From the NCBI GenBank assembly GCA_963706325.1, contig CAVPLT010000001.1, forward strand, positions 576,001-640,000: DNA of 64,000 bases, in the 5' to 3' direction. The position numbers were made by a program, and so were the translations under genes. Of this stretch, positions 14,895 to 37,127 are shown one piece after another; the stretch's first letter is position 1; every line of letters starts with the position of its first letter. Origin of the DNA: an uncultured Nitrospiraceae bacterium (GTDB taxonomy: Bacteria > Nitrospirota > Nitrospiria > Nitrospirales > Nitrospiraceae). The notes beneath the pieces are model-generated. The model did not search any database. It was not told the DNA's origin and saw nothing but the letters and a program-made list of their open reading frames with translations.

Positions 14895-15699
14895 GTATCC
14901 CCTATGCCGCTATTAAAGACGGACAATGGGTTTGACCCGTTTTCCAATCACACAACTGTCCGCCGGCAGGAGGTCTGATGTAGTCGATATTGCATTGGCG
15001 GACCACCCCTCTACATCCATACTTCTGAATTCTAATTGTCCTGAAGTGACCTTTCTACTGGGATTCCCCCGAGAGGGAGCCTCTTTACCCGACGACAGCT
15101 GAGATTCAGCGTGTTTCGTCCAGGTTTTCCAGGTCGAGTAATCGTGCGGGTGTCCGGAACAGACTGCTTGCAGGAGAAAGAGCGTCAGTAGGTAGCTGAA
15201 GGTCAAGAAAATTGGTCTCGAGAGGGACATTCCATTCTCCTCCGACAGCTCCGTTCGCAGCCACTTTCCCTTGTACACCGTAGAACCTCCGACGCTGAGC
15301 CACTTGAATGGGTAGGGCTGGGGGTTTCGTCATGCATTCGCAGCTGGAGCGGCAATTCGACCAATTTTCTCCCACCCTGTGACGGCGCCCGTCGTGAATT
15401 TCGCTGATGTACTCATGGAGGCTGGCTTGACTGTATAAGCCGGTGCGCCTTTTGCAGACTGTTCAGCTGCTATCGATGAGCCCACTGGAACAAGGGAAGG
15501 GAACATGGACGAGGGAAAGGGAAAGGCAGCAAGGATTAGCATGCTCCGCTTGATCGAGAGCACGAAGAACAGGAGAAGGTTCCGCCTCGAGGCAAGGCAA
15601 AAGAGAACAAGGTCCCCGACGCCGGTTCCGAGGGGCAGCGTAGCTGCCCCTCGGAGAATTAGCTCAAAGCCGTTGGTTGTCAAAGACGGAGGCCACACC

Positions 15700-15861
15700 A
15701 TGTGCTGTGAACGCGGTCGAAACTTAGTGGTGCCGGTTCCTCTTCTTGATGAGGGGGGTGGAGTGATGGATGACCCGGCATGGCGGTGTGTGGCCTGTGG
15801 CGATATCATTGATCCCCTAATTGCCAGGCCCCGCCGCAACGCCAAATTGCCTGCGAGATAG
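15700..15861 (+). CDS. Zn-ribbon-like microprotein, family copy 2 (first CxxC altered)
   Basis: GGAGG RBS at 15688. Translation is MCCERGRNLVVPVPLLDEGGGVMDDPAWRCVACGDIIDPLIARPRR.., closely matching the 9571 ORF. Confidence 0.7.
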   Translation: MCCERGRNLVVPVPLLDEGGGVMDDPAWRCVACGDIIDPLIARPRRNAKLPAR

Positions 15862-19198: not shown

Positions 19199-20116
19199 TC
19201 AGCCTTGAACCGTCGATCGCCTCGCGAGTTGCTCTAACTCCTCATCCAGCGCAGCAAAATCTTCCAGTATATCGATATGTGATTTCAGGAAATGCTCACG
19301 CATCGCGAGGGCGCCATGCCCTCCGACGGTGAGGTGAGAGGCGGGACTCACCTCCTGAGCCAGAGCCTGAATTATCTCGGTGGCTCTGGTTTCTGTGAAG
19401 GCCAATGGAAAAGACACGATGGTCAGATTCGGCTCCACCTCGTGGCAGAGCTTGGTCAGGTCCGCCACGGGCACATTCGCTCCTAGGTAGTACACACGAC
19501 AGCCTCGCACGCGGCAACGATAGGCGACGGCCAACGCGGCGATGTCGTGCTCCTCTCCGGGCGGGCAGGCCACCACCACTTTGACGCCAAATTCAGCCAC
19601 TGGCAGCTGATTCATCGCGGAAAAAATTTTCTGTTGGATGTGCTTGGTGACGTAATGTTCGAGGGCCACATTCACGTGGCCGTCGTGCCAGAGTTGCCCG
19701 ACCTGCGCTTGGAGCGGGAGTAAGATCCCGTGGAGCGCTTCTTCAAAGGGCACCACCGCAACCGCCCCGTTTAATCTTTTTTCAAACATGACGCGGTCAA
19801 AGGGCTCCAGCGCCGACAACAGTTCCCTCAAAAGGCGATCGAAGGTATTGTCGATAAAGGAAGTGCGTGGCGAAGCCGCTCGCATCCGGTTCAGAAGTTC
19901 CTCTCGGCCCAATCGCGCGAGGTCTCCGATGGAACCACCAGCATCTAATTGCTCTTTCAGGTAGCGCAGCAGCGCCACATCTTCATCTGAATAGTTGCGA
20001 TAGCGATTAGCTCCTCGCGTTGGTCTTAGGACCCCAAATCGGCGTTCCCATACCCGAATCACATCCTTCGACAGTCCGGTGAGTTTCGCAACTCTATGAA
20101 TTCTATGAATATTCAT
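19199..20116 (-). CDS. carH: MerR-family, cobalamin-binding transcriptional regulator (CarH/LitR type)
   Basis: MerR HTH (RVAKLTGLSKDVIRVWERRFG..P.R..NRYRNYS), W-x9-EH (WHDGHVNVALEH), B12 motif PPGEEHDIA, YLGANVP and VGG. Confidence 0.88.
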   Translation of the reverse strand: MNIHRIHRVAKLTGLSKDVIRVWERRFGVLRPTRGANRYRNYSDEDVALLRYLKEQLDAGGSIGDLARLGREELLNRMRAASPRTSFIDNTFDRLLRELLSALEPFDRVMFEKRLNGAVAVVPFEEALHGILLPLQAQVGQLWHDGHVNVALEHYVTKHIQQKIFSAMNQLPVAEFGVKVVVACPPGEEHDIAALAVAYRCRVRGCRVYYLGANVPVADLTKLCHEVEPNLTIVSFPLAFTETRATEIIQALAQEVSPASHLTVGGHGALAMREHFLKSHIDILEDFAALDEELEQLARRSTVQG

Positions 20117-20127
20117 GGCGGATTGAA

Positions 20128-20156
20128 ATTATATCTACATGTCTAATGTTTGTCAA
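20128..20156 (-). promoter_or_regulatory. Consensus sigma70 promoter of the carH-like gene
   Basis: Minus strand TTGACA (20156-20151), 17-bp spacer and TATAAT (20133-20128), ending 11 nt before the ATG at 20116. Confidence 0.85.
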
Positions 20157-20234
20157 ATATGTATTGATATAACTATTGACACATTGGACAAATAGGGCTA
20201 TACATTAGACATACTTGTTACAAACATTGAACAT
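20139..20234. promoter_or_regulatory. 11-bp repeat array, putative CarH-type operator, overlapping both divergent promoters
   Basis: Plus strand ACATTGGACAA (20181), ACATTAGACAT (20202), ACTTGTTACAA (20213) and ACATTGAACAT (20224). Minus strand ATATTTGACAA (20160-20150) and ACATTAGACAT (20149-20139). Plus-strand TTGACA lies at 20176. Confidence 0.78.
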
Positions 20235-20252
20235 AAACCCATGGAGTTGATC

Positions 20253-20546
20253 ATGGCGACATCAAATGGATTGAAAGACAAACCAAGACACAATGACCCG
20301 AATTATTTCTCAACTTTTTCGACGGAGCACAGCTGTGGGCGGTGCGGCGGACTCTTAGTGCAGGACTTCTGCACGGATCTGCTCAATAGCACCGGTGAGC
20401 TTGATTGCTCGACTGCGCGTTGCGTGCAGTGTGGTGATGTCGTCGATCCGGTCATTCACCGGAATCGGCATCTCCAGCAAACCGCTGGCACGGTTCGGGA
20501 CACGAAGGCGTCGGTGTCATCGGCTCACAGTCGGTTCTCGATCTAA
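20253..20546 (+). CDS. Zn-ribbon-like microprotein, family copy 3, first gene of the divergent operon
   Basis: GGAG RBS, translating to CGRCGGLL..DLLNSTG..RCVQCGDVVDPVIHRNR. Confidence 0.82.
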   Translation: MATSNGLKDKPRHNDPNYFSTFSTEHSCGRCGGLLVQDFCTDLLNSTGELDCSTARCVQCGDVVDPVIHRNRHLQQTAGTVRDTKASVSSAHSRFSI

Positions 20547-20596
20547 TGGCTCAACCCGCCGGGGTTGTCGAGGGTTCTTAACCAAGGAGGTTTCTC

Positions 20597-21559
20597 ATGC
20601 GGAGTCTAGCGGTTCTTCAGGTGGGATGGGGAATAGTGTTCATGGCGGGGTCAATGTCCCTGGCTGTGGCGGCGGATACCGCCGGCGACAATAAGGACAT
20701 GGTGCTCATTCCGAAAGGTGAGTTCTCCATGGGTAGCAACGAACACTCAGATGAGGTCAAGCACCAAGTCGTGCTCGATACGTACCTGATCGATAAGTTT
20801 GAAGCCTCCAATACGCGATACAAAGAATTCATGACGGCCACCGGCCATCCCGCACCGGCCTACTGGGACGATCCACGCCTGAGCAAGCCTAATCAGCCTG
20901 TGGTCGGGGTGAGCTGGACGGATGCGAATGCTTTCTGCAAGTGGGACGGCAAACGGCTGCCGACCGAGGCGGAATGGGAGAAGGCAGCCAAGGGTCCGGA
21001 CGGCGATAACCATTATCCCTGGGGTCACCACCTCGATCCGAAGAAGGCCAACTATGGGCAAAACGTTGGTCACACCACGCCGGTCGACTCGTATCCTGAG
21101 GGCGTGAGTGGATATGGCCTCTACAACATGGCGGGAAATGTCTTTGAATGGGTCGAAGACTGGTATGACCCGAAGTTTTACAAAAACAGCAACGCCCTGA
21201 ACCCTCGCGGGGCCGAGAAGGGCTACAACTTTGCTAATCAAGGCCCGGTGAGAGTGTTGCGTGGTGGCTCGTGGTTGGCTCCCGAGACCTCACTGCATAC
21301 CAGCCATCGGTTCTGGAATCAGCCGGAGAATAACTCCTACGGCGTCGGCTTGGGATTCCGTTGCGCAAAATCGGCCCAGACGGTCTCGGACGAATCCGTG
21401 CAGGTGGGACGCGATGCATTTATTCAGGCCTTAGTGGCCATGGGGGCCGAGAAGAATGCTGATGCGATGGCCTCCATCGAGAAGGCGCTGGCGGCCGATC
21501 CGAACAACAAGGAATACGTGGCGACCCGCGAGCTCATCAAGAAGAGCACGAAGAAGTAA
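20597..21559 (+). CDS. Secreted FGE-sulfatase/SUMF1-fold protein 1 with C-terminal TPR-like helices
   Basis: AAGGAGG RBS, signal peptide, [45 protein letters not shown] and GFRC. Confidence 0.92.
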   Translation: MRSLAVLQVGWGIVFMAGSMSLAVAADTAGDNKDMVLIPKGEFSMGSNEHSDEVKHQVVLDTYLIDKFEASNTRYKEFMTATGHPAPAYWDDPRLSKPNQPVVGVSWTDANAFCKWDGKRLPTEAEWEKAAKGPDGDNHYPWGHHLDPKKANYGQNVGHTTPVDSYPEGVSGYGLYNMAGNVFEWVEDWYDPKFYKNSNALNPRGAEKGYNFANQGPVRVLRGGSWLAPETSLHTSHRFWNQPENNSYGVGLGFRCAKSAQTVSDESVQVGRDAFIQALVAMGAEKNADAMASIEKALAADPNNKEYVATRELIKKSTKK

Positions 21560-21626
21560 CTCGCAGGCGAGGAGGGGGGCGGTACACCCGCCTCCCTGCC
21601 GGAGCCCTCAGGGGAGGAAGTCAGAA

Positions 21627-22685
21627 ATGAATATACTCGAAGGTTTAATCGGTGCGGGGCTGATGGTGGGAATTACCATGCTCACCGGGACCGCTCATGG
21701 GGAAGACAAGCTGCCGCCATCGGACATGGTCTATGTCGGGCATGGTCCATCAGTCATGGGACTGGACAAAGCGCAAACGGCTGATTCGGGCCGATGGCTC
21801 ACGGCCTACGACAAACGAATGAAGAAACCCTGGTCCGCCGAGGCGTTCCACGACGAAGGGCCGGCCCACATGGTGTTCTTGGACGCGTTCCTCATCGACA
21901 AGTACGAAGTGGCGAATAAGGATTACGGCGACTTCATTAGGGCGACCGGCCATCCGGCCCCGGCCTATTGGGATGATCCCCGTTTGAACAAGCCGCAGCA
22001 GCCGGTCGTCGGAGTCAACTGGTACGATGCCAAAGCGTATTGCGAATCTCGCGGGAAGCGGCTGCCGACGGAAGCCGAATGGGAGAAAGCGGCTCGTGGT
22101 CCACACGGCAACCTCTATCCCTGGGGCAACGATTTCGATTCGGCAAAAGCCAACTACAACCGGCATCAGGATGCGACCTGGCCCGTGGACTCGCACCCGG
22201 ACGGGGCCAGCTACTATGGCCTGTATAACATGGCGGGCAATGTCTTCGAGTGGGTCGCGGATTGGTATGATCCGCAGTATTACGGGAGGCTGCAGACCAT
22301 GGTGAATCCAACCGGTCCCGACAAGGCAGTGTGGATGGGGGGCACCGGCACCTATGTAGACCGCTTGACGGTAGGCGAGAAGCGGGTCATCCGTGGCGGT
22401 TCTTGGATCGCGCCGGAAGGCACGATCCGCTCGACCCACCGGTTCTGGAATCATCCTCTCAACAACAGTTACGGTGTAGGACTTGGCTTTCGTTGCGCTC
22501 AAGCAGCGCCGCCTGAGCTGGAACAACGTGTCAGGGACAGTTACATCACTGCCTTGGTGGAAATGGGACGCCAGCGATTTGTTGAAGCCCAACAAGCCGT
22601 CAACCGTGGGCTGACCCTGGACCCCAAGAATATTGAATTGTTGGAGCTTCGACCTCTCACTGAACAATCGATGAAGCGGCCGTGA
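21627..22685 (+). CDS. Secreted FGE-sulfatase/SUMF1-fold protein 2 with C-terminal TPR-like helices
   Basis: GGAGG RBS, signal peptide and the same core motifs. Shares GHPAPAYWDDPRL and HRFWNxPxNNSYGVGLGFRC with protein 1. Confidence 0.92.
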   Translation: MNILEGLIGAGLMVGITMLTGTAHGEDKLPPSDMVYVGHGPSVMGLDKAQTADSGRWLTAYDKRMKKPWSAEAFHDEGPAHMVFLDAFLIDKYEVANKDYGDFIRATGHPAPAYWDDPRLNKPQQPVVGVNWYDAKAYCESRGKRLPTEAEWEKAARGPHGNLYPWGNDFDSAKANYNRHQDATWPVDSHPDGASYYGLYNMAGNVFEWVADWYDPQYYGRLQTMVNPTGPDKAVWMGGTGTYVDRLTVGEKRVIRGGSWIAPEGTIRSTHRFWNHPLNNSYGVGLGFRCAQAAPPELEQRVRDSYITALVEMGRQRFVEAQQAVNRGLTLDPKNIELLELRPLTEQSMKRP

Positions 22686-22741
22686 AGAGTCAGGGCGGCT
22701 GGTGGTGGCGGCCCAATGTTCCACATGACGGAGGCAGAGGC

Positions 22742-23110
22742 ATGACGCACTCAAGAACAATGGCCCTGATAGGTGGTCTGACGATGTGGCTTACTCCAGT
22801 GATCCTCCAGGCCGGTCCGATCGAGGCCAGCCGCCACCCGCATCCGAAGAATATTGAGATGGTGCATCGGGCGGAACATAGCGTGGACCATGCCTGGGAG
22901 GTGTACCATCGTGCGGCGTTGGGAGGCACGGTGGCGTCCCCGGATCTGCAAGCCCGAATCGAACAACACCTGCATGAAGCCAGAACGCTTGTGCCCCAGG
23001 CGCAAGAGGCCGTCGAACGAGGAGACAGTCCCAAAGTGGAGCGTCTTGTAGGCAAAATTAAGCATCATACGGCCCAGGCAATCCAAGGGAGCAAGGAGCA
23101 GAAGAAATGA
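22742..23110 (+). CDS. His-rich secreted helical protein (possible metal-binding protein)
   Basis: GAGG RBS, signal peptide and many His on predicted helices (HRAEHSVDHAWEVYH, QHLHE, KHH). Confidence 0.75.
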   Translation: MTHSRTMALIGGLTMWLTPVILQAGPIEASRHPHPKNIEMVHRAEHSVDHAWEVYHRAALGGTVASPDLQARIEQHLHEARTLVPQAQEAVERGDSPKVERLVGKIKHHTAQAIQGSKEQKK

Positions 23111-23970
23111 CACCAGGTCTGAGCAGGACAAGAGTCAAATGGAGACGGCTCGGTCTACTCATGACGGCAGCCTGTGCCGTCTCAGTATCATCGGTTCTCG
23201 CATCGCCGGCCTTCAAGGAACCTGATCCGGTTCCCATGGCGACCATTCCCGCCGGACCGTTCCTAATGGGCAGTCAGAATCCGAAGGGGCGAGCCGATGA
23301 GTGGCCCCAGCGAACCGTCGACATCGATGCGTTCGCCATCGATCGCGTGGAAGTGACCAACGAACGTTACATGACGTTTGTTGCAACGACAGGCCACCGA
23401 AGCCCGCCGAACCCCTATGGCACCGGCCTGTTAGTGTCTGCAAAAGGCATCGAACAGCTGCCTGTCGTGCAGGTCACCTGGTACGACGCAAAAGCCTATT
23501 GCGCCTGGGCCAAGAAGCGCCTGCCCACGGAAGCGGAGTGGGAAAAAGCCGCACGCGGCACAGATGGGCGTCATTTTCCGTGGGGCGAGGATCAGCCGTC
23601 CCAGACCAGGTCGAATTTCGACCGGGAATGGGACGGTGAGAAGACTTTTCATGCGGTCGGCTCCTTGCCTGGCGGCAACTCACCCTACGGCATCCAGGAT
23701 ATGTCGGGCAATGCGCGGGAATGGGTGCAGGATTGGTACGATCCCGACTATTACTCGAATGCACCGGAGAAAAACCCGCAGGGACCCGAGAAGGGCGTAG
23801 TACGTGTGATCCGTGGAGGGTCCTGGCACAGCCCCATATCGGACATCACGGCCACTGCGCGCGGACGAGGGGGGTTTGCCTTACAGACGCACGGGACAGG
23901 CTTCCGGTGCGTTCGAGGTGGAGAAGGTCAGGTCCAGAGTAAGTCCAACTCGCTGGGAGCACTGAAGTGA
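23107..23970 (+). CDS. Secreted FGE-sulfatase/SUMF1-fold protein 3
   Basis: ATGA overlap with the upstream gene, [41 protein letters not shown] and GFRC. Confidence 0.92.
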
Positions 23971-24159
23971 CCGGAATGGACGGATGTCGGATGAACGGAA
24001 GCGGTTGGTTGTTCCCTGGTGGAGGCGTCGCTACTCCGCACGGCGCTTCCCATGAGGAGGATGGGTCCTTCCCTTGGGAGGGACTCGTCCCCTCGGTGAG
24101 CCACAGGACCACCAGCAGCGAGCGGGGAGATTCTTCAGAACACTGACGAGGAGACTTCC

Positions 24160-24288
24160 ATGATCTACATGTTGGTCTATAGCATCCCAGCCATCACGCT
24201 GAGTATCGGGGTGACTGTCATGTCGCGGCGGCAACCAGCCTGCGCGGTCGTTCGGCAGGCCGGACTCGGAAGACCTCGTGTCCGGTAG
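24160..24288 (+). CDS. Putative 42-aa single-TM peptide absent from the ORF track
   Basis: GAGGAG RBS, translating to MIYMLVYSIPAITLSIGVTVMSRRQPACAVVRQAGLGRPRVR. Confidence 0.45.
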   Translation: MIYMLVYSIPAITLSIGVTVMSRRQPACAVVRQAGLGRPRVR

Positions 24289-24379
24289 CGCATGTGTGCG
24301 TGTCGGATTGTGTCACATTCGAGCTCGGTGATCATTCCAGGTGTGGAGTCGTTGACAGTTCTCGCACTCGGAGGTTCCA

Positions 24380-24742
24380 ATGGAAACACGTGGGACACCG
24401 GACACGTCTTCTTCTGCAGCTCCGCATGCCGGCCACGCCACCTGCGCCCGCTGCGGTGGGTTGTTGCTTGGGCAGCACTATATGGATTTGCTCGATGATA
24501 CCGGCCAGATCGACATTACGGCCTGGCATTGCACGATGTGCGGCGAGGTCGTCGACGCGGTCATTCTGAAGAACCGCCAGAGCCCGCCGCCGAATTTGCT
24601 CTACGGAACCAAAGCGCGCAAGTTCAGCCAGCGGGTGACGGACATTGTGGACAGCAGTGGCTCGGATGATTCCTCCAATGAGACGGAGGCATCGCAAGCG
24701 AAAGACAAATCGTCCGAAGAGTCTGATGAAGAGGGTGCGTAG
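24380..24742 (+). CDS. Zn-ribbon-like microprotein, family copy 4, with acidic tail
   Basis: GGAGG RBS, CARCGGLL..MDLLDDTG..WHCTMCGEVVDAVILKNR and a D/E/S-rich C-terminus. Confidence 0.82.
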   Translation: METRGTPDTSSSAAPHAGHATCARCGGLLLGQHYMDLLDDTGQIDITAWHCTMCGEVVDAVILKNRQSPPPNLLYGTKARKFSQRVTDIVDSSGSDDSSNETEASQAKDKSSEESDEEGA

Positions 24743-24778
24743 TTAGCGGACAGCTGCTGTAAACGGGAGGATGGGCCG

Positions 24779-25690
24779 ATGAAAATCGTCGTGACCGGCG
24801 GAACGGGGTTTATCGGTCGTCCTCTTGTCGACGAGTTAGCTCGCCTGGGGCATGAAGTGGTTGTCTTGTCGAGGACGGCCGACCGCGATCCTCGGCCGTC
24901 CGTCAGGTTTGTGAGAATGGGATGCGCGTTCGGTGGGACCCTGGCAAGCCGAGCTTCTGTCGACGGATGCCGTCGTGAATTTAGCCGGCGAACCGATCGC
25001 TGAAGGACGATGGACGGAGGCCCGAAAGCGAGTTCTGGTCGCGAGCCGCATTGTTGCCACGAGGCTTGTGGTGACGGCGTTGGCTGCACGGTCTCGCGCT
25101 CTTCCTGTGTCTGATCAGCGCGTCCGGCATCGGCTTTTACGGTGCCAGCGACGATCGTCTCCTGGATGAACATTCTCCACTTGGTCAGGGGTTTCTGGCC
25201 GACCTGTCGTCGGTCTGGGAGGGAGAGGCGCTACGCGCCGGTGAGTCTGGGGCGCGTGTCGTGTTGCTGAGACCAGGCATGGTGCTCGAACAGGATGGTG
25301 GGGCATTGCCCAAGATGTTGTTGCCGTTTCGCTTCTTCGCTGGGGGGCCGATCATGCCTGGCACGCAGTGGGTTTCCTGGATCCACCGGAGTGGATCTTA
25401 TCGGCTTGATCAACTGGGCCATCACGACGCCGACGGTCTCGGGTCCTGTGAATGCGGTGGCTCCAGAGTCGCTCACGATGAAGACGTTCTGTGCGACTGT
25501 CGGGAAGGTCCTCCATCGTCCGTCGTGGTTTCCTGTTCCTGGTCTGGCGTTACGACTGGCGCTGGGTGAGTTGGGAACATTGATGACGACCGGTCAACGG
25601 GTCAATCCGGCCAAGGCGCTTGCGGGCGAGTACGTCTTTCGTTATCCGACGCTGGAGCCGGCCTTACGGGCGATCGTAGCAAAGGGATAA
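24779..25690 (+). pseudogene. TIGR01777-family NAD-dependent epimerase/oxidoreductase with three apparent +1 frameshifts (probably sequence errors)
   Basis: MKIVVTGGTGFIG, DAVVNLAGEPIAEGRWT, LISASGIGFYG, LLRPGMVL, QWVSWIH, GPVNAVAP and FRYPTLE lie across four successive frames. Shifts are near 24914, 25110 and 25390. Confidence 0.85.
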
Positions 25691-25706
25691 GCGAGGAGGC
25701 CTGGGC

Positions 25707-26190
25707 ATGAGCCTAACCATTGAGCCGGTGATGCAGTATCTGCACGCGGTCGCCGTCGCCATTCTGCTGGGGAAGGTTGTGTTGTTGTCGTTCGTGGTGG
25801 CGCCGATCCTTGCGAAGAATTTGGAACGGGAGGCATTTGGGAAAGTCGTTCGGGAACTATTCCCCGCCTATTATAGGTTAGGCATGGCTACGGCTGCTGT
25901 GGGGCTGGTATCCGTGACCGGTCTCTTGACCCTCCAAGGTCTCAACCCATCCCTGCTGGCCGCAGGGGGGCATTTGGCTGGTGATCCTGGCCGCTGAGTC
26001 TTACTGCCGGTCGCCGCTGACCCCACAGAGCAATGCAATGAGAGATCGATTGAAGGAGCAGGAACAGCGTGGCGCCGTCGATGCTCGGCTGCAGGTAGCC
26101 TGGAGTCGATTGCATCAACGATCGATTTACCTCAATTCGATCGTGCTGCTTGGGGGACTCAGTTTATTGGGAGTTGCACGTCAATTTTAA
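25707..26190 (+). pseudogene. DUF4149-like membrane protein with one frameshift at the G6 run 25965-25970
   Basis: SFVVAPIL..L.RE.FGKVVRELFPAYY in the first frame and LTPQ..AMR..RLHQRSIYLN in the second. Confidence 0.7.
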
Positions 26191-26212
26191 TTTCTACGAA
26201 GGGAGACCGAGC

Positions 26213-26701
26213 ATGCATAAATCCATCGACACCAGGGCATATGTAGCGTTGGGACTTTTGGGCGTCATTCTCCTTCAGCTCGCCTCCGCGGATGGCTGAG
26301 GTCGAGGGCGGCTGACGAACAAACCACTCCTGGATCGCGGGCACGGCCGGCACCTGGCTCAGAAATCACGATGCCCGATGGCGTCATCGGGGTGTCGCTG
26401 CATGTCGGGGCTGAACGGGTGGGCGATACCGCGGTGCTGTATATCGCGCATGTTTTGCCTGAGGGTCCGGCGCAGCAGGCGGGACTCAAGCAAGGTGATG
26501 AGGTGACCACCGTGGATGGCGCTGCTCGTCACCGGAAAAACCTACGAGCAAGTGGCCCTAATGGTACGAGGCGCGCCGGGATCGATGGTGAAGTTGGGAG
26601 TGAAGGGTGAGGGTGGCTTGCGCGAGATCTCTGTCACACGTGTGGCGGGACAATCCCTTTACAAGGGTCAGATGGGATCCCATGGCAGCTCTTCTCGATA
26701 G
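26213..26701 (+). pseudogene. Secreted PDZ-domain protein, frameshifted (probably sequence errors)
   Basis: Signal-like MHKSIDTRAYVALGLLGVILLQLAS, then GVIGV..VLPEGPAQQAGLKQGDEVTTVDG, then VTGKTYEQVALMVRGAPGSMVKL, in successive frames. Confidence 0.75.
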
Positions 26702-26708
26702 GTGAGCC

Positions 26709-27234
26709 ATGAGAACGATCATTGGGGTGCTTGGATTGTTCGGAATCTTGGCCGTGAGTTCGACCCTTGGAGGCTCACGGCCAAGTGACCACGGCGTCAC
26801 AGCTGTCTCACGGCGAGAAGACGAACATATATCTGATGGCCGGCGACTATCGCCGGGCGTTGGAGGTGTGCGAGCAAGCGATTCAGGAGATGCCGTCGGC
26901 CGAAGCCTACCTCCGTCTCACCTATGTCTATCAGGCGATCGATGCGTACCTTGAGCAGCTGTCTCAGGACGAGAGTTGGATGGCCGTCGAACAATTGTAT
27001 TTGAACCTCGCTTACCGGCATACGGAAGATCTCGTCGATCCGCCCGGCGGGCTGGCGCGCATGGCAAAAGAGATGATTCAAACGAGTGTCCGGCAGCAGT
27101 CCGACGTCAGCGCAGCGATGGCCGTGCGGCTGGATAAGGCGGAGGCTGATCGTCTCTGGCAGGAACAGACGCAGTGGCGGAAAGCACATCCCACCACGTG
27201 GTGGCGGGCATTTCCAGGGGTCTGGGGTCGATGA
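26709..27234 (+). pseudogene. Secreted TPR-like helical protein with a frameshift near 26769
   Basis: Signal peptide in ORF 26709, with the body (YLMAGDYRRALEVCEQAI..) in ORF 26767-27234. Confidence 0.65.
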
Positions 27235-27281
27235 AGAGGAGGCCTCCTCCCAACATAAGTCCTCGGGAGGAGATCCAAATA

Positions 27282-27713
27282 ATGAACCAGGACACAGCTG
27301 ACCGCGGACGTGATGTCAAACTGTTCGGAGCCTTATTCATCCTGGTGGGATTGGTCGATATGCTCATTATCGAATTCTTCCCAAACTATGCGCTCAAGCT
27401 GTTCGGCCTCACGATTACCGGGCCTTTGGCCTATCCTGTCAAACTACATTCCCCGGCGGTTCACTTTTTGATCGGGTATGGATTTGTATTTCTGCGCCCC
27501 TGGGCCTGGGGGTTGGCGATGGCCTATGGAGGATTCGGGCTCACGAGTGAATTCATGAATCAGCTGCAGTTTGGTTTTCATTATCTGCGAACGGGCTTTA
27601 TGGCTGCGACATTCCTGTTTCTCTGTTACGCGGCGTGGCGGCGGACTCTGTTTGTCGATACTGTGCCTCCGGCTCACCGGCGGGCTTCTTCCACACCAGA
27701 GGTGCCCTCGTGA
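27282..27713 (+). CDS. Four-TM membrane protein
   Basis: GGAGGAG RBS and four hydrophobic segments. Its stop overlaps the photolyase GTG start. Confidence 0.78.
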   Translation: MNQDTADRGRDVKLFGALFILVGLVDMLIIEFFPNYALKLFGLTITGPLAYPVKLHSPAVHFLIGYGFVFLRPWAWGLAMAYGGFGLTSEFMNQLQFGFHYLRTGFMAATFLFLCYAAWRRTLFVDTVPPAHRRASSTPEVPS

Positions 27714-29158
27714 AAGGGTTGGTGTGGTTTCGTCGTGATCTTCGTGTTCGTGATAACCCCGCCCTATCGGCGGCGTGCAAGGACTGTCGGGAGATCGTGC
27801 CCTTGTTTGTCTTTGACGAACCGTTGCTGCAATCGCATGTGTTTGGATCCGCTAGCGTCGGCTTCATGCTGGGTTGCCTGGAGGAGTTGCGAAGCTCGTT
27901 GGCAAGTCTCGGCCTCACACTCGCGTGGCGGATCGGCCAGCCAATCGACGCCGTGATGCAGGCTGCGGCAGATTTTGGAGTGGATGCGGTCTACTGGAAT
28001 CGTGATTATGAACCGGCAGCCCTGGAGCGGGATCGCACGATCGAGCTCCGTCTCACACAACAGAGCCGGGCGGTGAAGACCTTCAAGGACCACGTCGTGT
28101 TCGAGGCCGATGAAGTGCGTGGAGTCACCGGCGAACCCTTCCAACGCTACAGCGCCTACCGTGATCGGTGGTGGGTCAAGTGGCGGGCTGCCACACCGCT
28201 CGAACTCGACGTCCCGACATTCGAGGCGACGAAGTCAGGTGCCTCTGCTCCAGAGGTATCGCCGTGGCCTTCGGCGGAGGATCTGGGATACCAGACGGTC
28301 TCGATGTGGATCGAACCAGGTGAGCTGGCGGCGCGCGCCAGACTCCGATGGTTCCTGCGAGGACCAATCCATGCCTATGTCAGTGGCAGGAATCTCCCGG
28401 CGATCGACGGCACGTCCAAGCTGTCTCCGCACTTGCGCTTCGGAACTATTTCTGCGCGCACCGTGATTCACGCGGCGCTGAACACCCTGTCGAAAGACGG
28501 TCCGGTGTCGCGCGCCGATGTCTTCACGTGGATGGATGAGCTTGTCTGGCGGGAATTTTTTCAGCAAGTCCTGATGGCGTTTCCTCGCGTGTCCGAAGGG
28601 CCTTTCAAAATCAAACCCGGGCTTCCCTCAGCGAGAGGCGCGGGGCCTGAACGCGATCGATTATTTGCCGCCTGGTGTCAGGGACGGACGGGCTATCCGA
28701 TCGTGGACGCCGGTATGCGCCAATTGAATCAGACCGGTTGGATGCACAACCGCGTTCGGATGGTCGTCGCCTCGTTCCTGGTCAAGGACCTCCGCATCGA
28801 GTGGCAAAGCGGTGAGCGCTATTTCATGCGGCAGCTTGTCGACGGCGATCTGGCGGCCAACAACGGCAACTGGCAATGGTGCGCCTCGACCGGAACGGAT
28901 GCGATGCAGGGCTATCGGATTTTTAATCCCATGTTGCAAAGCGAGAAATTCGATGGCGAGGGTAATTACATTCGACGATACGTGCCGGAGCTCACCGGCG
29001 TGCCGGTGAAATGGATTCATGCGCCACACCTCATGCCACAGGGTGAACAAGACCGTGTCGGATGCCGCATCGGCATGGAATATCCGGCGCCCATTGTTGA
29101 TCATCGCCAAGCTCGTCAGGAATACTTAGACTTCGGAAAACGTCAGGTGGCGACATGA
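27710..29158 (+). CDS. phrB: Deoxyribodipyrimidine photolyase (class I CPD)
   Basis: WFRRDLRVRDNPAL, TSKLSPHLRFG, ELVWREF, GRTGYPIVDAGMRQL, GWMHNRVRM, LVDGDLAANNGNWQW and RIFNP motifs. Confidence 0.95.
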   Translation: MKGLVWFRRDLRVRDNPALSAACKDCREIVPLFVFDEPLLQSHVFGSASVGFMLGCLEELRSSLASLGLTLAWRIGQPIDAVMQAAADFGVDAVYWNRDYEPAALERDRTIELRLTQQSRAVKTFKDHVVFEADEVRGVTGEPFQRYSAYRDRWWVKWRAATPLELDVPTFEATKSGASAPEVSPWPSAEDLGYQTVSMWIEPGELAARARLRWFLRGPIHAYVSGRNLPAIDGTSKLSPHLRFGTISARTVIHAALNTLSKDGPVSRADVFTWMDELVWREFFQQVLMAFPRVSEGPFKIKPGLPSARGAGPERDRLFAAWCQGRTGYPIVDAGMRQLNQTGWMHNRVRMVVASFLVKDLRIEWQSGERYFMRQLVDGDLAANNGNWQWCASTGTDAMQGYRIFNPMLQSEKFDGEGNYIRRYVPELTGVPVKWIHAPHLMPQGEQDRVGCRIGMEYPAPIVDHRQARQEYLDFGKRQVAT

Positions 29159-30108
29159 TGTCCACACCGCTCCGTCTCGGTATCAGCCGCTGTCTTCTCG
29201 GCGCAGAAGTTCGGTTCGATGGAGGCCACAAACGGGACGGGTTTCTGACCGACCTGTTGGGCCGCTACGTCGAATGGGTGCCGGTCTGTCCGGAGGTCGA
29301 GGCAGGGCTCGGCACTCCTCGCGAAGCGATGCGACTGGTCGGCGATCCGCAACAGCCTCGACTGGTTGCGATCAAGAGCGGGAAGGACCATACCCAAGCC
29401 TTGGCGACCACGACGGCGACTCGACTTCCTGAGCTCGAAAGACTGGACCTTTCGGGGTTTGTCTTTAAAAAGGACTCGCCGAGTTGTGGGATGGAACGGG
29501 TGCGTACATACAATGAGCATGGCATGCCGGGCAGGAAGGGAATCGGGCTATTTGCGCAGGCCTATGTCGAGCGGTTTCCGCTGATTCCAGTTGAGGAGGA
29601 AGGGAGGCTATGCGATCCCCTCTTGCGAGAAAATTTTATTGAGCGGGTGTTTTGCTACCGCCGTTGGCAGGACCTGGTTCAACGTGGGATTTCCAGGCAG
29701 GCACTCGTACAGTTCCATACCACTCACAAATATCTGCTCCTCGCTCATAGCGCCCAGCATTATCGCCTGCTCGGGCGCTTGGTGGCGCAGGTGAACGCCT
29801 ATCGCCCCAAGGATCTGACTCTTCGATATGGCGAGCTCTTCATGCAGGCGCTGTCCGTGAAGGCGACGGTGCGTAAACATGTGAATGTGCTTCAGCACAT
29901 CCTGGGGTACTTCAAACCGCGACTCGATGCGCAAGGAAAAGCCGAACTATTGAGTGTGATCGGGGATTATCACCAGGGGCTGACGCCTTTGATCGTTCCT
30001 CTGACCTTGATCAAGCACTACGTGCAGATCTTTGACGTCGACTACATTCGCGAGCAGGTCTATCTGAACCCGCATCCGAAGGAGCTCATGCTCCGGAACC
30101 ATGTGTAG
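29155..30108 (+). CDS. ybgA: DUF523 (TudS-like) plus DUF1722 protein (YbgA/RudS-type)
   Basis: GISRCLLG, VRFDGGHK, VCPEVE, SPSCG, EEEGRL, FH..HKYLLLAHS, HVNVLQHILGY and YLNPHPKEL motifs. ATGA overlap with phrB. Confidence 0.92.
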   Translation: MMSTPLRLGISRCLLGAEVRFDGGHKRDGFLTDLLGRYVEWVPVCPEVEAGLGTPREAMRLVGDPQQPRLVAIKSGKDHTQALATTTATRLPELERLDLSGFVFKKDSPSCGMERVRTYNEHGMPGRKGIGLFAQAYVERFPLIPVEEEGRLCDPLLRENFIERVFCYRRWQDLVQRGISRQALVQFHTTHKYLLLAHSAQHYRLLGRLVAQVNAYRPKDLTLRYGELFMQALSVKATVRKHVNVLQHILGYFKPRLDAQGKAELLSVIGDYHQGLTPLIVPLTLIKHYVQIFDVDYIREQVYLNPHPKELMLRNHV

Positions 30109-30290
30109 AAAGGAACGCCATGCCGCACGTTGTCGTTGAAAAGCCCGTGATGGAGGGCTGTGGTGGTGGGGTTCATCAGAAGGTGTACCTGGCTAGCCGT
30201 CATAGAGACAATCTTCAAGAGTGCTTGGACTTAAGAGGTTCGTGAGAAACGGCACCCAAATTTGAATATCCGAATAGGAGGAGCAGAGAC

Positions 30291-30800
30291 ATGGCAGCTG
30301 AGCGACGAGGTGTCATTCTGGTTGGTCACGGGGGCATTCCCAAGGGTTGCCCTCAAGATGTCGTCACGAAATTGAAACGCCTGGAGGCTCAGCGGCGCGC
30401 CGCCAAGCAACCGCCGTCAGCCGAAGAGATCGAGTTGGATACAAAGATTCGCCAATGGCCGAGGACGCCGGAAACCGATCCCTATCAATCAGGGCTTGAA
30501 GCCGTGGCCGCCCAATTGAAAGCGAACCTGGGAGATGTGCTGTTTGCGGTGGCCTACAATGAGTTTTGCGCCCCGACCTTGGAAGAGTCGGTGGAGCAGC
30601 TTGTTCAAAACGGCGCGACCCACATTACTGTGACCACGACCATGTTTACGCCGGGCGGTTCGCATTCAGAAGTCGAGATACCGGAAATTCTTGATCACCT
30701 TCGGCCACAGTATCCAGGTGTGGAACTCCGCTATGCCTGGCCGTTTGATCTGAACCGGGTCGCGAATACGCTGGCTGAGCAGATCAAGCGATTTGCCTGA
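30291..30800 (+). CDS. cbiX: CbiX/SirB-type class II chelatase (short form)
   Basis: ILVGHG, AYNEFCAPTL and MFTPGGSHSEVEIP carrying the two chelatase His. AGGAGGAG RBS. Confidence 0.8.
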   Translation: MAAERRGVILVGHGGIPKGCPQDVVTKLKRLEAQRRAAKQPPSAEEIELDTKIRQWPRTPETDPYQSGLEAVAAQLKANLGDVLFAVAYNEFCAPTLEESVEQLVQNGATHITVTTTMFTPGGSHSEVEIPEILDHLRPQYPGVELRYAWPFDLNRVANTLAEQIKRFA

Positions 30801-33487: not shown

Positions 33488-35128
33488 TTACGAGGCTTGC
33501 GCGGATCGTGGAACGGAACCGGATGCCGATGACGGGTGCCGAGAAAGTCCGATTCCCGACGACGACGAATCGAGCAATGCGCGCACGGTGCGCAGCAAGA
33601 GGTCCGGCGAGAACGGCTTCTGTAGAAATGTGGTTCGATGCGGATCCATTCCTCTATTGGCAGAGATATCGTCCAGATAGCCGGACATAAAGAGCACCCG
33701 CAAGTTGGGTTTGATGACAGAAAGATGTTGCGCCAGCTCGCGGCCATTCATGCCCGGCATAACCACGTCGGTCAGCAGCAGATCCACATGGCAAGTGTGT
33801 TGAGTAGCCGTGAGACAGGCCTCGACCCCGTTCCTGGCTTCGAGGACCTGATAGCCAATTTTGGCGAGCTCATTGCGGACAAGCTCACGGACGCTGTTAT
33901 CGTCCTCGACGAGGAGAATCGTTTCCGATCCCTGTCGGACCCCTCCTGATAATTCCGCGGTATTCACCGTCATGGTTTGGGAATTGACGCGCGGAAAGTA
34001 CAGATCGAAGGTGGTGCCGTGTCCGACCTGACTCCACACATCGATACCGCCGCCGCAGCTCGTGACGATCCCGAAGACAGTCGACAGCCCAAGACCGGCG
34101 CCCGTATGCTCTTCCTTGGTGGTAAAAAACGGTTCGAACAAGTGCGAGAGGACGTTTGCATTCATTCCGCATCCGGTGTCGGTCACGGTCCATTTGACAT
34201 ACTTTCCCAGCGGCAGGGGTTGTAGGTGGTGCATCGGCGTGCGTGTGAGTTCGGCCTGTGATGTTTCGATCGCCAATAGACCGCCGTTAGGCATGGCATC
34301 ACGGGCGTTGACGACTAGGTTCATGATGACTTGCTCGAGTTGCCCGGCATCTCCCTTTACGTGGCCGTCGTGTGGATCCAAACGAATGACCAATTGAATG
34401 TCTTCGCCGATGAGGCGCCGGAGCATACTATCTATATTTTTAATGACCGTATTCAACGAGAAGACTTTTGGTTCCAAGGTCTGCTTCCGGCTGAAGGCCA
34501 TGAGTTGCCGAGTCAAGGTCGCGGCTCGCTGCCCGGCTTTCTCCATTTCTTCGATTTTGGCGCGGATCGGATTGCTCGAGGGAAGTTCCCCAAGGAGGGC
34601 GTGGCTGTGGCCCATGATGACCGTCAGCAAATTGTTGAAATCATGGGCCAGGCCTCCGGCGAGGCGGCCGACGGCTTCCATTTTTTGAGCCTGCCGAAAC
34701 TGCTTTTCGCTCATGCGGAGGGCATCTTCTGCCCGTCTGCGTTCGAGTCTTTCGTCGAGATCACGCAGTGTTCGCTTGATTGACGGCACCAGGCGCCCGA
34801 GGCGTTGCTTGAATATATAGTCGGTGGCCCCTTGTTGCATCAGATCGATGGCGAAGTCTTCGCCCTGCTGGCTCGAGACGAACAGGAATGGCATGTCAGG
34901 GTGCAGCGTGCGGGTCAGGGCGAGAGCGGCGGATCCGTCAAATCCCGGGACTGAGGTGTCGGCAAGAATAAAGCTGCTTCCGTCTTGTCGGAGCGCGGCG
35001 AGAAACTCCTCGCGAGTTTGCGTGCGCTTCGATTGACAGAGGATGCCGGCATCTCGCAAGGTCGTAGAGATCAGTTCCGCGTCCGCGGTATTACTCTCGA
35101 GATGGATGAATCGCAGAGGCTCAGTCAT
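33488..35128 (-). CDS. Hybrid histidine kinase (REC-HisKA-HATPase-REC)
   Basis: QAQKMEAVGRLAGGLAHDFNNLL, NLVVNARDAM, DTGCGM, FEPFFTTK, GLGL and C-terminal REC (LLVEDD, TDVVMP, QKP). Confidence 0.94.
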   Translation of the reverse strand: MTEPLRFIHLESNTADAELISTTLRDAGILCQSKRTQTREEFLAALRQDGSSFILADTSVPGFDGSAALALTRTLHPDMPFLFVSSQQGEDFAIDLMQQGATDYIFKQRLGRLVPSIKRTLRDLDERLERRRAEDALRMSEKQFRQAQKMEAVGRLAGGLAHDFNNLLTVIMGHSHALLGELPSSNPIRAKIEEMEKAGQRAATLTRQLMAFSRKQTLEPKVFSLNTVIKNIDSMLRRLIGEDIQLVIRLDPHDGHVKGDAGQLEQVIMNLVVNARDAMPNGGLLAIETSQAELTRTPMHHLQPLPLGKYVKWTVTDTGCGMNANVLSHLFEPFFTTKEEHTGAGLGLSTVFGIVTSCGGGIDVWSQVGHGTTFDLYFPRVNSQTMTVNTAELSGGVRQGSETILLVEDDNSVRELVRNELAKIGYQVLEARNGVEACLTATQHTCHVDLLLTDVVMPGMNGRELAQHLSVIKPNLRVLFMSGYLDDISANRGMDPHRTTFLQKPFSPDLLLRTVRALLDSSSSGIGLSRHPSSASGSVPRSAQAS

Positions 35129-35163
35129 GAGGTCTATTGGAATGAAAATGCCTGAAGAAGGGG

Positions 35164-35631
35164 CTACGTAGCTCGGCCGCCTGAACGGCTTGCTCCTTCA
35201 GGAGGCGGTTCGTTGATCATTCCCCAGAACACACCGAGCTCTTTGACGGCCTTGAGAAACTGGTGAAATTCCACCGGTTTCACCACATAGGCATTGGCCC
35301 CGAGGGCATAACTTTCAACGAGATCTCGCTCTTCGCGCGAGGATGTCAGCATGACCACCGGGATAGGTTTTAAAGCGGCATCACCCTTGATGGTCCGCAG
35401 CACTTCGAGTCCATCGACCTTCGGCATCTTCAAATCGAGAAGGACGACAGCCGGGTTTCCTTGGAGGCGGGTCTTAAAGTGCCCACGGCAATAGAGATAA
35501 TCAAGCACCTCGGCGCCGTCGTGACAGAGAATGACCTTATCGGCGAGATGATGCTCTTCCATGGCCGCCAGGGCCAGTTCGGCATCCCGCGGATTGTCTT
35601 CCGCCAGAAGAATAGGTTTGGAGGAGGTCAT
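35164..35631 (-). CDS. Rcp1-like response regulator
   Basis: ILLAEDNPRD, LLDLKMPKVDG, MLTSS, GANAYVVKP and FW motifs. Confidence 0.93.
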   Translation of the reverse strand: MTSSKPILLAEDNPRDAELALAAMEEHHLADKVILCHDGAEVLDYLYCRGHFKTRLQGNPAVVLLDLKMPKVDGLEVLRTIKGDAALKPIPVVMLTSSREERDLVESYALGANAYVVKPVEFHQFLKAVKELGVFWGMINEPPPEGASRSGGRAT

Positions 35632-37127
35632 GCCGTCCGCCTTGTTAAGGGGAGACTGACGAAAAATGTGGCGCCTTCGCCCAGTGTGCCCTCTGCCCAG
35701 GCTTTTCCGCCGTGGCGGTGAATAATGCGACGGACATTGGCGAGGCCAATGCCGGTGCCTTCGAATTCATCCGCTCGATGGAGTCGCTGAAAGACGCCGA
35801 ACAGTTTATTGGCATAACGCATATCAAATCCTACCCCGTTATCGCGTACAAACACCACTGCTTCTTCCTGACTACCCTGTCGACTGCCGATCTCAATGTT
35901 GGCCTGAGGTCGGGTGCCGGTGAACTTGATGGCGTTGCTGACAAGATTGGCAAAGACCTGCCGTAACATTGCTGCGTCTCCAGTGACCTCAGGGAGCTGA
36001 GCGATTGTCCATGAGATCGCCCGATCTTGCAAGTCATGTCGGAGATCATGCAGCACTGAGGCAATCAATTGGTTGAGATTAACCGTTCCATGTAACATTT
36101 CCTGTCGGCCCATGCGGGAAAAGACCAACAGATCGTCGATCAGTTGCCCCATCCGGGTGGCTGATTCCGAAATCGTCTGCAGATAGCGCTTGGCTTTATC
36201 GTCCAATGAAACGGTTGCAGCTTTGGCCAAAAGCGAGGCATAGCCGTCAATATGGCGTAGCGGGGCGCGCAGATCATGTGAGACGGAGTAACTGAAAGCT
36301 TCCAATTCTTTGTTGGCGGCTTCCAGAAGTTCGCCGCGCCGGTGGAGCTCGTCGGCGACTCGCCGCCGTTCCTTCACGTCATGGCGGATTAAGTAGTAGA
36401 CAGCAGCCAGCAAGACGAACAGCAAAAGGGCGCCAATGGTCAGCAGGATAATGCTGGAGCGAGTTGTCGTGGTGGATTCGACAACGCGTTGCGCAAGCGC
36501 TTTTGTTTCATCCTGTTCCATCTGTATTTCCAGATGTCGCGCGGCATCGAGTTCAGCCTTAGCGACCCCGGCCAAAGCCATCGCTCGTACCGATTCGAAT
36601 CCCGTTTCGTTTCGCCGTTCGACGGCCGCACGTTCCTTTTGGAGTTGCTGTGTGATGAGCGTTTCAAGCTCATGTACTCGTTTTCGTTGCGTGCTACCGA
36701 CCTCGGTGAGGTTCTGCAGGTAGCCGATATATTCGGGCGCCCGCGCGCGCAGGGTGTTGTAAGCAGCCAGATATCCGTTGTCGCCGGTCACCAAGAAGCG
36801 TCGATGACCGCTTTCAGCCTCGTCCATGCTTTCACTGGTTGCGGCCAGAAACTGAATGAACTCGTGGCTCCGCTGATCCTGCCGGCCGTTTCGGATGAGG
36901 ATGGTCATGTTGCGGTATGAGATGGCGGAAATCACCAGAATGCCGGCAAATACGAGCCCAAACCCCGCTAGCACGCGGTGTTCAATCGATCGGTTTTGAA
37001 AGGTGTGCACCCATGGAACGAGGAACGGCACTCGCGCCAGGATGCGCCCGCCCTTAGGTGAGAGAGGAAGCGATGATTTCGCGACGGCGTCGGAGGCCGG
37101 CTGACTGTTCGGTTCGTTCATACCCAT
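35628..37127 (-). CDS. CHASE3 sensor histidine kinase
   Basis: Two TMs flanking a DxxESGxRxFLVTG CHASE3 domain, FSYSVSHDLRAPLR, NLVSNAIKF, DNGVGF, FQRLH and GIGL. Confidence 0.93.
   Translation of the reverse strand: MGMNEPNSQPASDAVAKSSLPLSPKGGRILARVPFLVPWVHTFQNRSIEHRVLAGFGLVFAGILVISAISYRNMTILIRNGRQDQRSHEFIQFLAATSESMDEAESGHRRFLVTGDNGYLAAYNTLRARAPEYIGYLQNLTEVGSTQRKRVHELETLITQQLQKERAAVERRNETGFESVRAMALAGVAKAELDAARHLEIQMEQDETKALAQRVVESTTTTRSSIILLTIGALLLFVLLAAVYYLIRHDVKERRRVADELHRRGELLEAANKELEAFSYSVSHDLRAPLRHIDGYASLLAKAATVSLDDKAKRYLQTISESATRMGQLIDDLLVFSRMGRQEMLHGTVNLNQLIASVLHDLRHDLQDRAISWTIAQLPEVTGDAAMLRQVFANLVSNAIKFTGTRPQANIEIGSRQGSQEEAVVFVRDNGVGFDMRYANKLFGVFQRLHRADEFEGTGIGLANVRRIIHRHGGKAWAEGTLGEGATFFVSLPLTRRTA

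Follow-up and report, generated by a model that had tools for sequence, protein, structure and literature searches.

Class I CarH/LitR regulators, among them Thermus thermophilus CarH (5C8D), Bacillus megaterium LitR and Myxococcus xanthus CarH (PMC8156234; papers are cited throughout for the parts of them that were available), share a domain order, a Wx9EH cap and a His ligand motif, act on operators of TnnACA units over sigma70-type promoters and count photolyase among their targets. The class II LitR proteins of Pseudomonas (PplR/PmlR; PMC9758184) are without the B12 Rossmann domain and act via LOV proteins; their light regulons are carotenoid-free and include phrB, RudS, a cfa/ufaM-like methyltransferase, an SDR and an FAD oxidoreductase. 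RudS itself is a tRNA 4-thiouridine (s4U) de-modifying enzyme, a TudS-DUF1722 fusion with a photolyase neighbour and a MerR-type regulator (PMC11417400). Here we analysed a locus with features of all three systems at positions 19199-30800 of a 64,000-nucleotide stretch (the window) of contig CAVPLT010000001.1, taken from the 4.24-Mb, 96% complete genome (G000) of an uncultured Nitrospiraceae bacterium. It consists of a CarH-type regulator gene, carH, and a divergent operon of exported FGE-fold proteins, a small exported protein called HisR, further membrane and exported proteins and photo-repair genes. It shares with class I systems the domain order, the cap, the ligand motif and a putative operator containing TnnACA units, and differs from them in having no carotenoid pathway, in its exported FGE-fold front cargo and in the high expression of this cargo in dark-kept Nitrospira cultures. 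The Pseudomonas regulons are likewise carotenoid-free and contain phrB and RudS, together with the other genes named above that recur in relatives of our locus; however, our regulator has both B12 domains, and no FGE module is described in those regulons in the available parts of PMC9758184.

The operon was not described in the literature that we searched, in which subscription journals are sparsely covered. Both the class of the regulator and the repair genes had been described before; the locus is an undescribed CarH/LitR variant whose conserved exported module has survived the loss of the sensor. Our best reading, to which we give even chances, is that light boosts an operon for the maintenance of periplasmic nitrification enzymes and for photo-repair. 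Its parts differ in strength: control of both promoters by B12 and light is probable, a substantial light induction of the front module is slightly favoured, and a role of this module in the upkeep of periplasmic nitrification enzymes, suggested by gene neighbours only, is possible rather than probable.

Regulator, putative shared operator and cargo

The regulator matched MerR_1 (PF13411), B12-binding_2 (PF02607) and B12-binding (PF02310), all above the Pfam cut-offs, and its top PDB match was T. thermophilus CarH (5C8D/3WHP, E 2e-27) in an end-to-end alignment; against the NCBIfam CarH equivalog it scored 129 bits, under the cut-off of 400. It carries W143-x9-EH and E-x-H190. The Wx9EH adenosyl-capping motif, defined for class I CarH/LitR (PMC8156234), was kept in all 43 homologues including the window protein, and the spacing of the classic B12 motif ExHx2Gx41Sx(V/T)x22-27GG in 42 of them. 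At the Gly position of this motif 22 homologues have G, 18 have A (the window protein among them, a departure from class I), two have S and one is truncated. All four motifs of the light-response signature (GxxW, EH, GxxH, GxxxP; PMC11796333) were found in the window protein, as in 36 of the 43 homologues. By analogy with the family, B12 binding, photolysis and autoregulation may be expected of this protein, and the corresponding activities of the photolyase and RudS.

Genes for AdoB12 supply are present in the window's genome: btuB, an ABC importer, two adenosyltransferases, cobU/T/S/D, cbiZ and two riboswitches; cbiC was not found there. Of these, btuB, the importer, the two adenosyltransferases, cbiZ and the riboswitches belong to a cobalamin salvage and adenosylation cluster at G000:C8:24654-38600 (locus L154). 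No crtI gene scored above the family cut-off in this genome, and its two SQS_PSY genes, which we infer to be hopanoid genes, are located outside the operon; the absence of carotenoid genes claimed by the first-pass annotation, made from the sequence of the window, was thus borne out for crtI. In some related loci an internal third CarH paralogue stands 3' of RudS (L070:4511-5479, L159:15349-16317, L155:9525-10604) and has DxH in place of ExH, in some copies also EQ in place of EH. A DCC1-like thiol-disulfide oxidoreductase gene lies 3' of carH on the same strand in 18 of 41 loci (e.g. L033:4518-5080, L035-L047); the window has none.

The spacer between carH and the operon is 124 bp long and contains back-to-back sigma70-type promoters, with four ACATTRRACA boxes overlapping both. 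A promoter similar to that of carH was found in 32 of 44 orthologous spacers, a set that leaves out one internal paralogue; the candidate operon promoter was not listed by promoter prediction because its -10 element is without the final T. The boxes numbered at least three in 29 of these spacers, one or two in 13 and none in two, and in 100,000 shuffled versions of the window spacer the number did not exceed two. As the box pattern was derived from the same spacers, the shuffling shows only that the boxes are no effect of composition. In a matrix scan the box cluster occurred once in the window's genome; the next-best cluster consisted of three weak boxes (score 34, against 74), and a wider regulon in this genome was rejected. 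In related loci the clusters sit at regulator promoters, one each, and none precedes phrB or amoC; one weak two-box cluster lies elsewhere in L107. TnnACA units, in a putative binding register, overlap both promoters: they are 11 bp apart on the reverse strand (20156/20145) and 22 bp apart on the forward strand (20206/20228). Compared with class I operators, the Nitrospira boxes lie on both strands with mixed spacings of 9, 11 and 21 bp. The box counts and the matrix scan support a putative operator common to both promoters.

Domains, motifs and gene coordinates also confirmed the earlier description of a CarH/LitR-like regulator divergent from about 15 packed, co-oriented genes with overlaps. 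The string comprises the 14 genes listed before, a 42-residue open reading frame and a gene remnant; its order, read from Pfam/NCBIfam matches and open reading frames, is that of Table 1. Stop and start codons overlap by 4 nt at three junctions (HisR/FGE3, four-transmembrane gene/phrB and phrB/RudS), and the remaining gaps measure 7-91 nt, except for 189 nt 3' of FGE3.

Export of the FGE proteins and HisR was judged from hydrophobic N-termini and published 'exported' labels. FGE1 shows an invariant HRFWN-P-NNSYG motif, and alignment to Streptomyces and human FGE revealed no catalytic cysteines in it; the active-site pair that follows the GGS motif of the enzyme is absent from FGE1, FGE2 and FGE3 alike, and we rejected Cys-dependent FGE activity. 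The three proteins share the PF03781 fold and export with FGE and with non-catalytic FGE-fold systems (SUMF1/2, PvdO, GldK, C-terminal domains of EgtB/SenA). They differ from these in the missing cysteine pair, in their own invariant motifs, in the TPR-like tail of FGE1 and FGE2, and in scores far under the NCBIfam cut-offs (best 121 bits, against 350-500 for EgtB/SenA/OvoA/PvdO/GldK). The three secreted FGE-fold proteins of the first-pass annotation are thus retained as to fold and export, without the cysteines of the enzyme. The invariant motifs fall where, as we assume from general knowledge of the fold, the binding pocket lies, and the FGE proteins might act as non-catalytic, lectin-fold binding proteins via these C-terminal pocket motifs. 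The AlphaFold model of FGE1 was poor (predicted local distance difference test, pLDDT, 55) and was not used. A GC-rich hairpin (21565-21600, z -1.4), possibly a message-stability element, lies between FGE1 and FGE2.

HisR has 11 histidines in 122 residues in the window, only one of which is invariant among 18 orthologues; the protein had been described as secreted and His-rich, and the second attribute holds for this copy and is not conserved. Its fold gave no Foldseek match at E<=0.001, VIA returned only generic helical bundles, and complex prediction for FGE3 with HisR scored 0.01, giving no verdict. HisR resembles SmbP (PF16785), as which some databases label it, in being small, exported, helical and, in Nitrospiraceae copies, rich in His; however, it has no Pfam match and three predicted helices, and some loci contain a genuine SmbP gene besides. 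We rejected an identity of the two since HisR does not match PF16785 and its histidines are not conserved as repeating ligands, in particular not in distant orthologues.

The operon closes with the repair genes. The DUF523-DUF1722 gene is, by its sequence, RudS: it keeps Cys13, Cys45, Glu47, Arg56, Ser108, Ser110 and Cys111 (equivalent to Cys17/49/114, Glu51, Arg60, Ser111 and Ser113), that is, the three cluster cysteines and the Glu/Ser/Ser/Arg set of the described enzyme (PMC11417400), and thiI is present in the window's genome. Photolyase and DUF523-DUF1722, named earlier as light-stress neighbours, were both upheld by domains and residues. The RudS gene of Nitrospira differs from the systems described in PMC11417400 in being kept even where a clade has lost the photolyase and the head regulator.

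The wide gap after FGE3 contains a two-hairpin RNA element, found at this place in 82 of 106 loci (duplicate genomes counted; z -3.5). When 69 of the 76 distinct copies were aligned, double-sided changes occurred in 11 of 22 pairs, and 95.8% of the cells pair compared with 43-48% in slid controls. As double changes occur in as many as 10 pairs of the slid controls, the case for the RNA rests on the pairing percentage and the covariation score. There was no Rfam match at E<=1 and no terminator was predicted at 24020-24097; the element was not found in 14 sister-family loci. Open reading frames similar to the 42-residue one that follows it were counted in 52 of 76 loci, with diverged sequences and without a shuffled control.

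Conservation and rewiring in Nitrospirota

We surveyed 301 genomes of the phylum. The regulator matched in 48 of them and HisR in 54, all within the class of the window. All loci were examined in the 42 genomes with a head-type regulator: in 39 the regulator is divergent to FGE1, each time with HisR and FGE3 (four of these via a partial regulator gene, one via an inserted cytochrome module), two were cut by contig ends and one was without the module. FGE2, present in 25 of the 39 linked loci, is dispensable. Among 33 loci with at least 9 kb of room, RudS was found in 31, TIGR01777 and CbiX in 30 each, PDZ and phrB in 28 each, DUF4149 in 18, the TPR-like gene in 17 and the four-transmembrane gene in 14; the genomes counted here are related to one another and do not amount to independent samples. 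The synteny check proposed with the first-pass annotation (CarH-like, FGE, phrB and DUF523/1722 genes) gave a conserved linkage of the regulator with the FGE1, HisR and FGE3 genes, in 39 of 42 genomes. The best 80 HisR loci bear Nitrospira-type titles save for three Nitrosospira and two labelled bacteria only; N. defluvii (L079) and N. moscoviensis (L100) are among them, and 70 distant HisR relatives were found besides.

The recurrence of phrB and RudS speaks for a link with light, as does the cargo that several relatives append (cfa, DUF2878, DUF1295, chalcone-isomerase-like, SDR and flavin oxidase genes), which is partly shared with the light-induced LitR regulons of Pseudomonas. Redoxin and peroxidase genes also extend the string in relatives. 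A link with enzyme maintenance is suggested by other neighbours. In comammox-type genomes amoC stands co-oriented directly 3' of FGE3 in five loci from four bins (L122, L132, L135, L137, L142); four of the five copies are full-length with the metal-site motif, and they are about 77% identical to typical amoC. A NapC-type cytochrome gene takes this place in five other loci. Genes for a NapC/NirT-type cytochrome, a cytochrome-c-FGE fusion and SmbP stand behind a second CarH gene equipped with the same operator (L038, L047, L049, L050, L054, L056, L060, L067, L176), and genes for an EB_dh-family heme-b and a c-type cytochrome follow the operon in several loci of genus g10. The EB_dh-family genes presumably resemble NXR gamma candidates. 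As side observations, some second-CarH loci hold a catalase-peroxidase gene, in some the first regulator is a stub with its operator retained, and a stand-alone amoC lies near the second regulator in L040, L049, L050 and L067. A search for amoC in the window's genome gave none, but the control genomes came out blank too.

Twelve loci, 11 of genus g10 and one of g12 (L155-L157, L163-L171), carry the core FGE1-HisR-FGE3-TIGR01777-RudS without a divergent regulator or box cluster; six of the g10 loci have just a distant internal paralogue. Instead, a sigma54-type site (WGGCACR-N4-TTG, ending in TTGA) is found in ten of the 11 g10 loci and in the g12 locus, preceded at a distance of 78-130 bp by TGTCTCA/TGAGACA boxes. 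The full TGTCTCA/TGAGACA palindrome is absent from 123 other loci, and the upstream palindrome of g10 type was not found in the window's genome. Genes for sigma54 activators, kinases and response regulators adjoin several of the g10/g12 loci, and the adjacent response regulator gene has a similar sigma54 site of its own upstream. A photolyase domain was absent from all five g10 genomes that are 99-100% complete, while the g12 locus retains phrB; the joint loss of head regulator, operator and photolyase in g10 again argues for a link with light. FastTree was run on four genes from 32 selected loci, with the one locus of another order as root; the sigma54 loci formed one clade (support 1.0) inside the regulator-headed loci, which suggests a single switch away from the B12 sensor to sigma54 in g10/g12.

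Expression in relatives and competing explanations

Expression evidence was taken from passages and supplement rows of PMC6606698, PMC9381531, PMC8407350 and PMC8115632. The N. moscoviensis locus tags (NITMOv2_0130-0146) were assigned by matching L100 coordinates to a published table; the transcript values below come from 12 of 16 matching rows. In a chemostat run in a glass reactor (PMC6606698; lighting is not mentioned in the available part), the FGE1 transcript ranked 8th of 4,391 with 6,821 reads per kilobase per million (RPKM; median 97.6), followed by FGE3 (rank 42, 2,312 RPKM), HisR (65, 1,647) and carH (275, 629). After FGE3 the values were 180, 51, 84, 71, 60, 46 and 69 RPKM. This 13- to 50-fold drop means that the operon is not one uniform transcript. 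The RNA element lies at the place of the drop and might cause it; by protecting the 3' end of the front message, the two hairpins would set the step. In N. moscoviensis cultures stated to be dark-kept (PMC9381531; ranks of 2,244 proteins, first replicate), FGE3 ranked 146, HisR 158, TIGR01777 543, CbiX 619, CarH 1,002, the photolyase 1,113, TPR 1,510 and RudS 1,517, and FGE1 and PDZ ranked higher still, as given below. Another proteome (PMC8407350) placed FGE1 at rank 359 and FGE3, HisR and the photolyase at about 2,030-2,090.

These exported proteins are abundant in dark-kept cultures and are kept in a lineage without the sensor, so that light likely turns the module up and does not switch it on. 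In the mechanism that we propose, the CarH-type protein would bind coenzyme B12 and, at both promoters, the four overlying boxes, damping the promoters in the dark rather than closing them. Light would release the regulator and thereby yield more of the predicted DNA and tRNA repair enzymes and of the already abundant exported module, whose members FGE1, HisR, FGE3 and PDZ may bind and maintain periplasmic nitrification enzymes. Of the light-induced module of the first-pass annotation, the CarH-type regulator, the linkage, the operator and phrB/RudS were supported; a module silent in darkness that light would induce was not supported in that form. A broader version of this interpretation, which we consider rather unlikely, would have FGE1-HisR-FGE3 and PDZ repair or assemble the nitrification enzymes that carry metal or heme, in the periplasm and throughout the class. 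This undescribed system would be raised by a B12 photoreceptor when light damages those enzymes, would be extended with spare AmoC and cytochromes in comammox, and would have passed to sigma54 two-component control in the one lineage that gave up photolyase.

Several observations weigh against a light-boosted maintenance operon. In the B12 motif of the window regulator, Gly is replaced by Ala and Val/Thr by Pro, although E, H, S, the spacing and GG are intact, and the boxes depart at position 2 (C, not A) from the CarH consensus, nAnnTnnACAn in tandem 11-bp repeats. In the dark-kept N. moscoviensis cultures FGE1 was the 29th and PDZ the 30th most abundant of the 2,244 proteins (PMC9381531), and the proteome shows that this organism makes its own B12 enzymes. 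In N. marina, kept in the dark and dependent on B12, 76-101 spectra were published for FGE1, 3-8 for FGE3, 2-8 for PDZ, 12-22 for RudS and 11-17 for CbiX, the genes being assigned by neighbouring ids and names; such levels fit weak repression or light at sampling, and also no light control at all. No comparison of lit with dark cultures was found in the literature. PDZ matched FGE1 in protein abundance, yet a different study measured 80-fold less mRNA for it, so that the RNA step does not simply set the protein ratios. Regulator and HisR occur together in just 36 of 50 genomes of the window's family, so the module is not essential to nitrification, and in locus L059 the regulator and the repair genes occur but the FGE module is missing. 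Canonical nitrite oxidisers, including the window's genome, have no nitrification subunit in the operon. Lastly, 16-17 FGE-fold genes were counted in the window's genome, which means that the fold alone says little.

The dark-kept cultures also bear on a classic on/off light switch, by which true darkness would close the operon tightly and all of its cargo would serve photoprotection. The canonical motifs and operator are those expected of such a switch, and exposure to room light during sampling could account for the high published levels, given that AdoB12 is photolysed irreversibly and that proteins last for days in slow growers; the transcriptome came from the glass reactor of PMC6606698, and N. 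marina, kept in the dark with B12, showed modest levels, with HisR and the head regulator not listed in its table. The top-30 abundance in stated dark-kept cultures, with FGE3 and HisR detected as well, speaks against silence in darkness, as does the clade without head regulator and mostly without photolyase that keeps FGE1-HisR-FGE3-TIGR01777-RudS. We judge the on/off switch unlikely. Quite unlikely, too, is a general envelope or nitrosative/oxidative stress system, with surface binding and PDZ/TPR quality control and not specifically tied to nitrification enzymes, whose stress promoter amoC and the cytochromes would have borrowed. PDZ, TPR, DCC1-like, redoxin, glutathione peroxidase and catalase-peroxidase genes do recur in the loci, and the amoC and cytochrome insertions are lineage-restricted; however, three types of nitrification-chain genes joined the operon in separate lineages, and look-alike FGE+TPR clusters, a lead only, are commonest in Nitrospinota and Planctomycetota. 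That the regulator gauges AdoB12 supply, opening the operon through an apo-protein unable to repress when cobalamin is short or damaged, so that exported proteins scavenge corrinoids or cobalt and CbiX serves as chelatase, would agree with the poor DNA binding of apo-CarH (PMC8156234), with CbiX ending the operon in 30 of 33 loci, with salvage genes in a genome where cbiC was not found and with N. moscoviensis media that mention no vitamin in the available part, and is nevertheless very unlikely, because riboswitches of their own and no operator cluster accompany the genes for B12 uptake, neither photolyase nor RudS serves B12 salvage, and upon nitrite depletion cbi proteins fell up to 13-fold while FGE1 and photolyase rose only 1.4-fold and RudS fell, in published data.

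How nitrite accumulates in waters and reactors is influenced by the inhibition of nitrifiers by light, and a study of photoinhibition in N. inopinata suggests gene regulation in recovery, naming no genes in its available part. Were the class-wide repair system correct, it would be the molecular basis of this recovery. With this locus, a sensor can be named, an operator predicted and the target genes assigned to locus tags of a cultured strain (NITMOv2_0130-0146). Further points of interest are an exported Nitrospira protein that ranks among the most abundant of those without an explanation, a carotenoid-free CarH regulon and, over the same gene set, the natural replacement of a photoreceptor by a sigma54 system.

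Feature coordinates and minor observations

Table 1. Features of the carH locus, in window coordinates.
Feature	Position	Strand	Basis or remark
CarH/class I LitR-type regulator, 305 aa	19199..20116	-	MerR helix-turn-helix, four-helix cap, B12 Rossmann domain
carH promoter, TTGACA-17-TATAAT (12/12)	20128..20156	-	11 nt from start codon; box 20140-20149 inside its spacer
Candidate operon promoter, TTGACA-17-TATACA, and three ACATTRRACA boxes (20181, 20202, 20224)	20176..20233	+	Read from sequence
Zn-ribbon microprotein 1 (CxxC...CxxC)	20241..20546	+	One of about 18 genome paralogues
FGE1, exported FGE/SUMF1-fold protein with C-terminal helical (TPR-like) tail	20597..21559	+	Pfam; orthologue NITMOv2_0132
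FGE2, FGE1 paralogue	21627..22685	+	Same motif; Pfam, alignment
HisR, exported three-helix-bundle protein	22742..23110	+	pLDDT 82.5; overlaps FGE3 start
FGE3, exported FGE-fold protein	23107..23970	+	Pfam; own conserved motif, no catalytic cysteines
Two-hairpin RNA element, near-invariant ACUCCGCA loop	24020..24097	+	Single genome copy; no U-tract
42-aa open reading frame	24160..24288	+	One hydrophobic segment, basic Arg-rich tail; similar open reading frames
Zn-ribbon microprotein 2	24380..24742	+	Open reading frame and paralogue comparison
TIGR01777 (YfcH) epimerase-family protein	24779..25690	+	Frame broken, likely assembly errors
DUF4149 membrane protein	25707..26190	+	Pfam; one likely assembly frameshift at 25965
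Small exported PDZ-domain protein	26213..26701	+	Frame broken, likely assembly errors
Exported TPR-like protein	26709..27234	+	Frameshift at 26772
Four-transmembrane membrane protein	27282..27713	+	No Pfam family
phrB, class I cyclobutane pyrimidine dimer photolyase-family protein	27710..29158	+	Pfam/NCBIfam
RudS (TudS/DUF523-DUF1722), predicted tRNA 4-thiouridine desulfidase	29155..30108	+	Pfam, residues
41-codon remnant	30120..30245	+	Relatives hold whole 123-aa gene at same place
CbiX-family small chelatase-like protein	30291..30800	+	Pfam; present in 30/33 loci

The TIGR01777, DUF4149, PDZ and TPR genes are interrupted in the window by single surplus bases at 24913-5, 25109-11, 25965, 26525 and 26772. 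We compared these five sites with near-identical contigs of runs X1, X3 or X6 (at most two independent runs for each site), in which the surplus bases are missing; these five are among the indels listed. In relatives the intact genes have median lengths of 315, 159, 162 and 182 residues, respectively. Because near-identical contigs are without the extra bases and relatives have whole genes, the five frameshifts are likely assembly errors, and a reading of the four genes as pseudogenes was rejected.

The Zn-ribbon microproteins belong to a family with about 18 copies in the window's genome, others of which lie in the same window (15505-15861 and the 9535 region). Further downstream, at 33488-37127 on the reverse strand, genes for a CHASE3-like sensor kinase, a single-domain response regulator and a hybrid kinase have no apparent tie to the operon.

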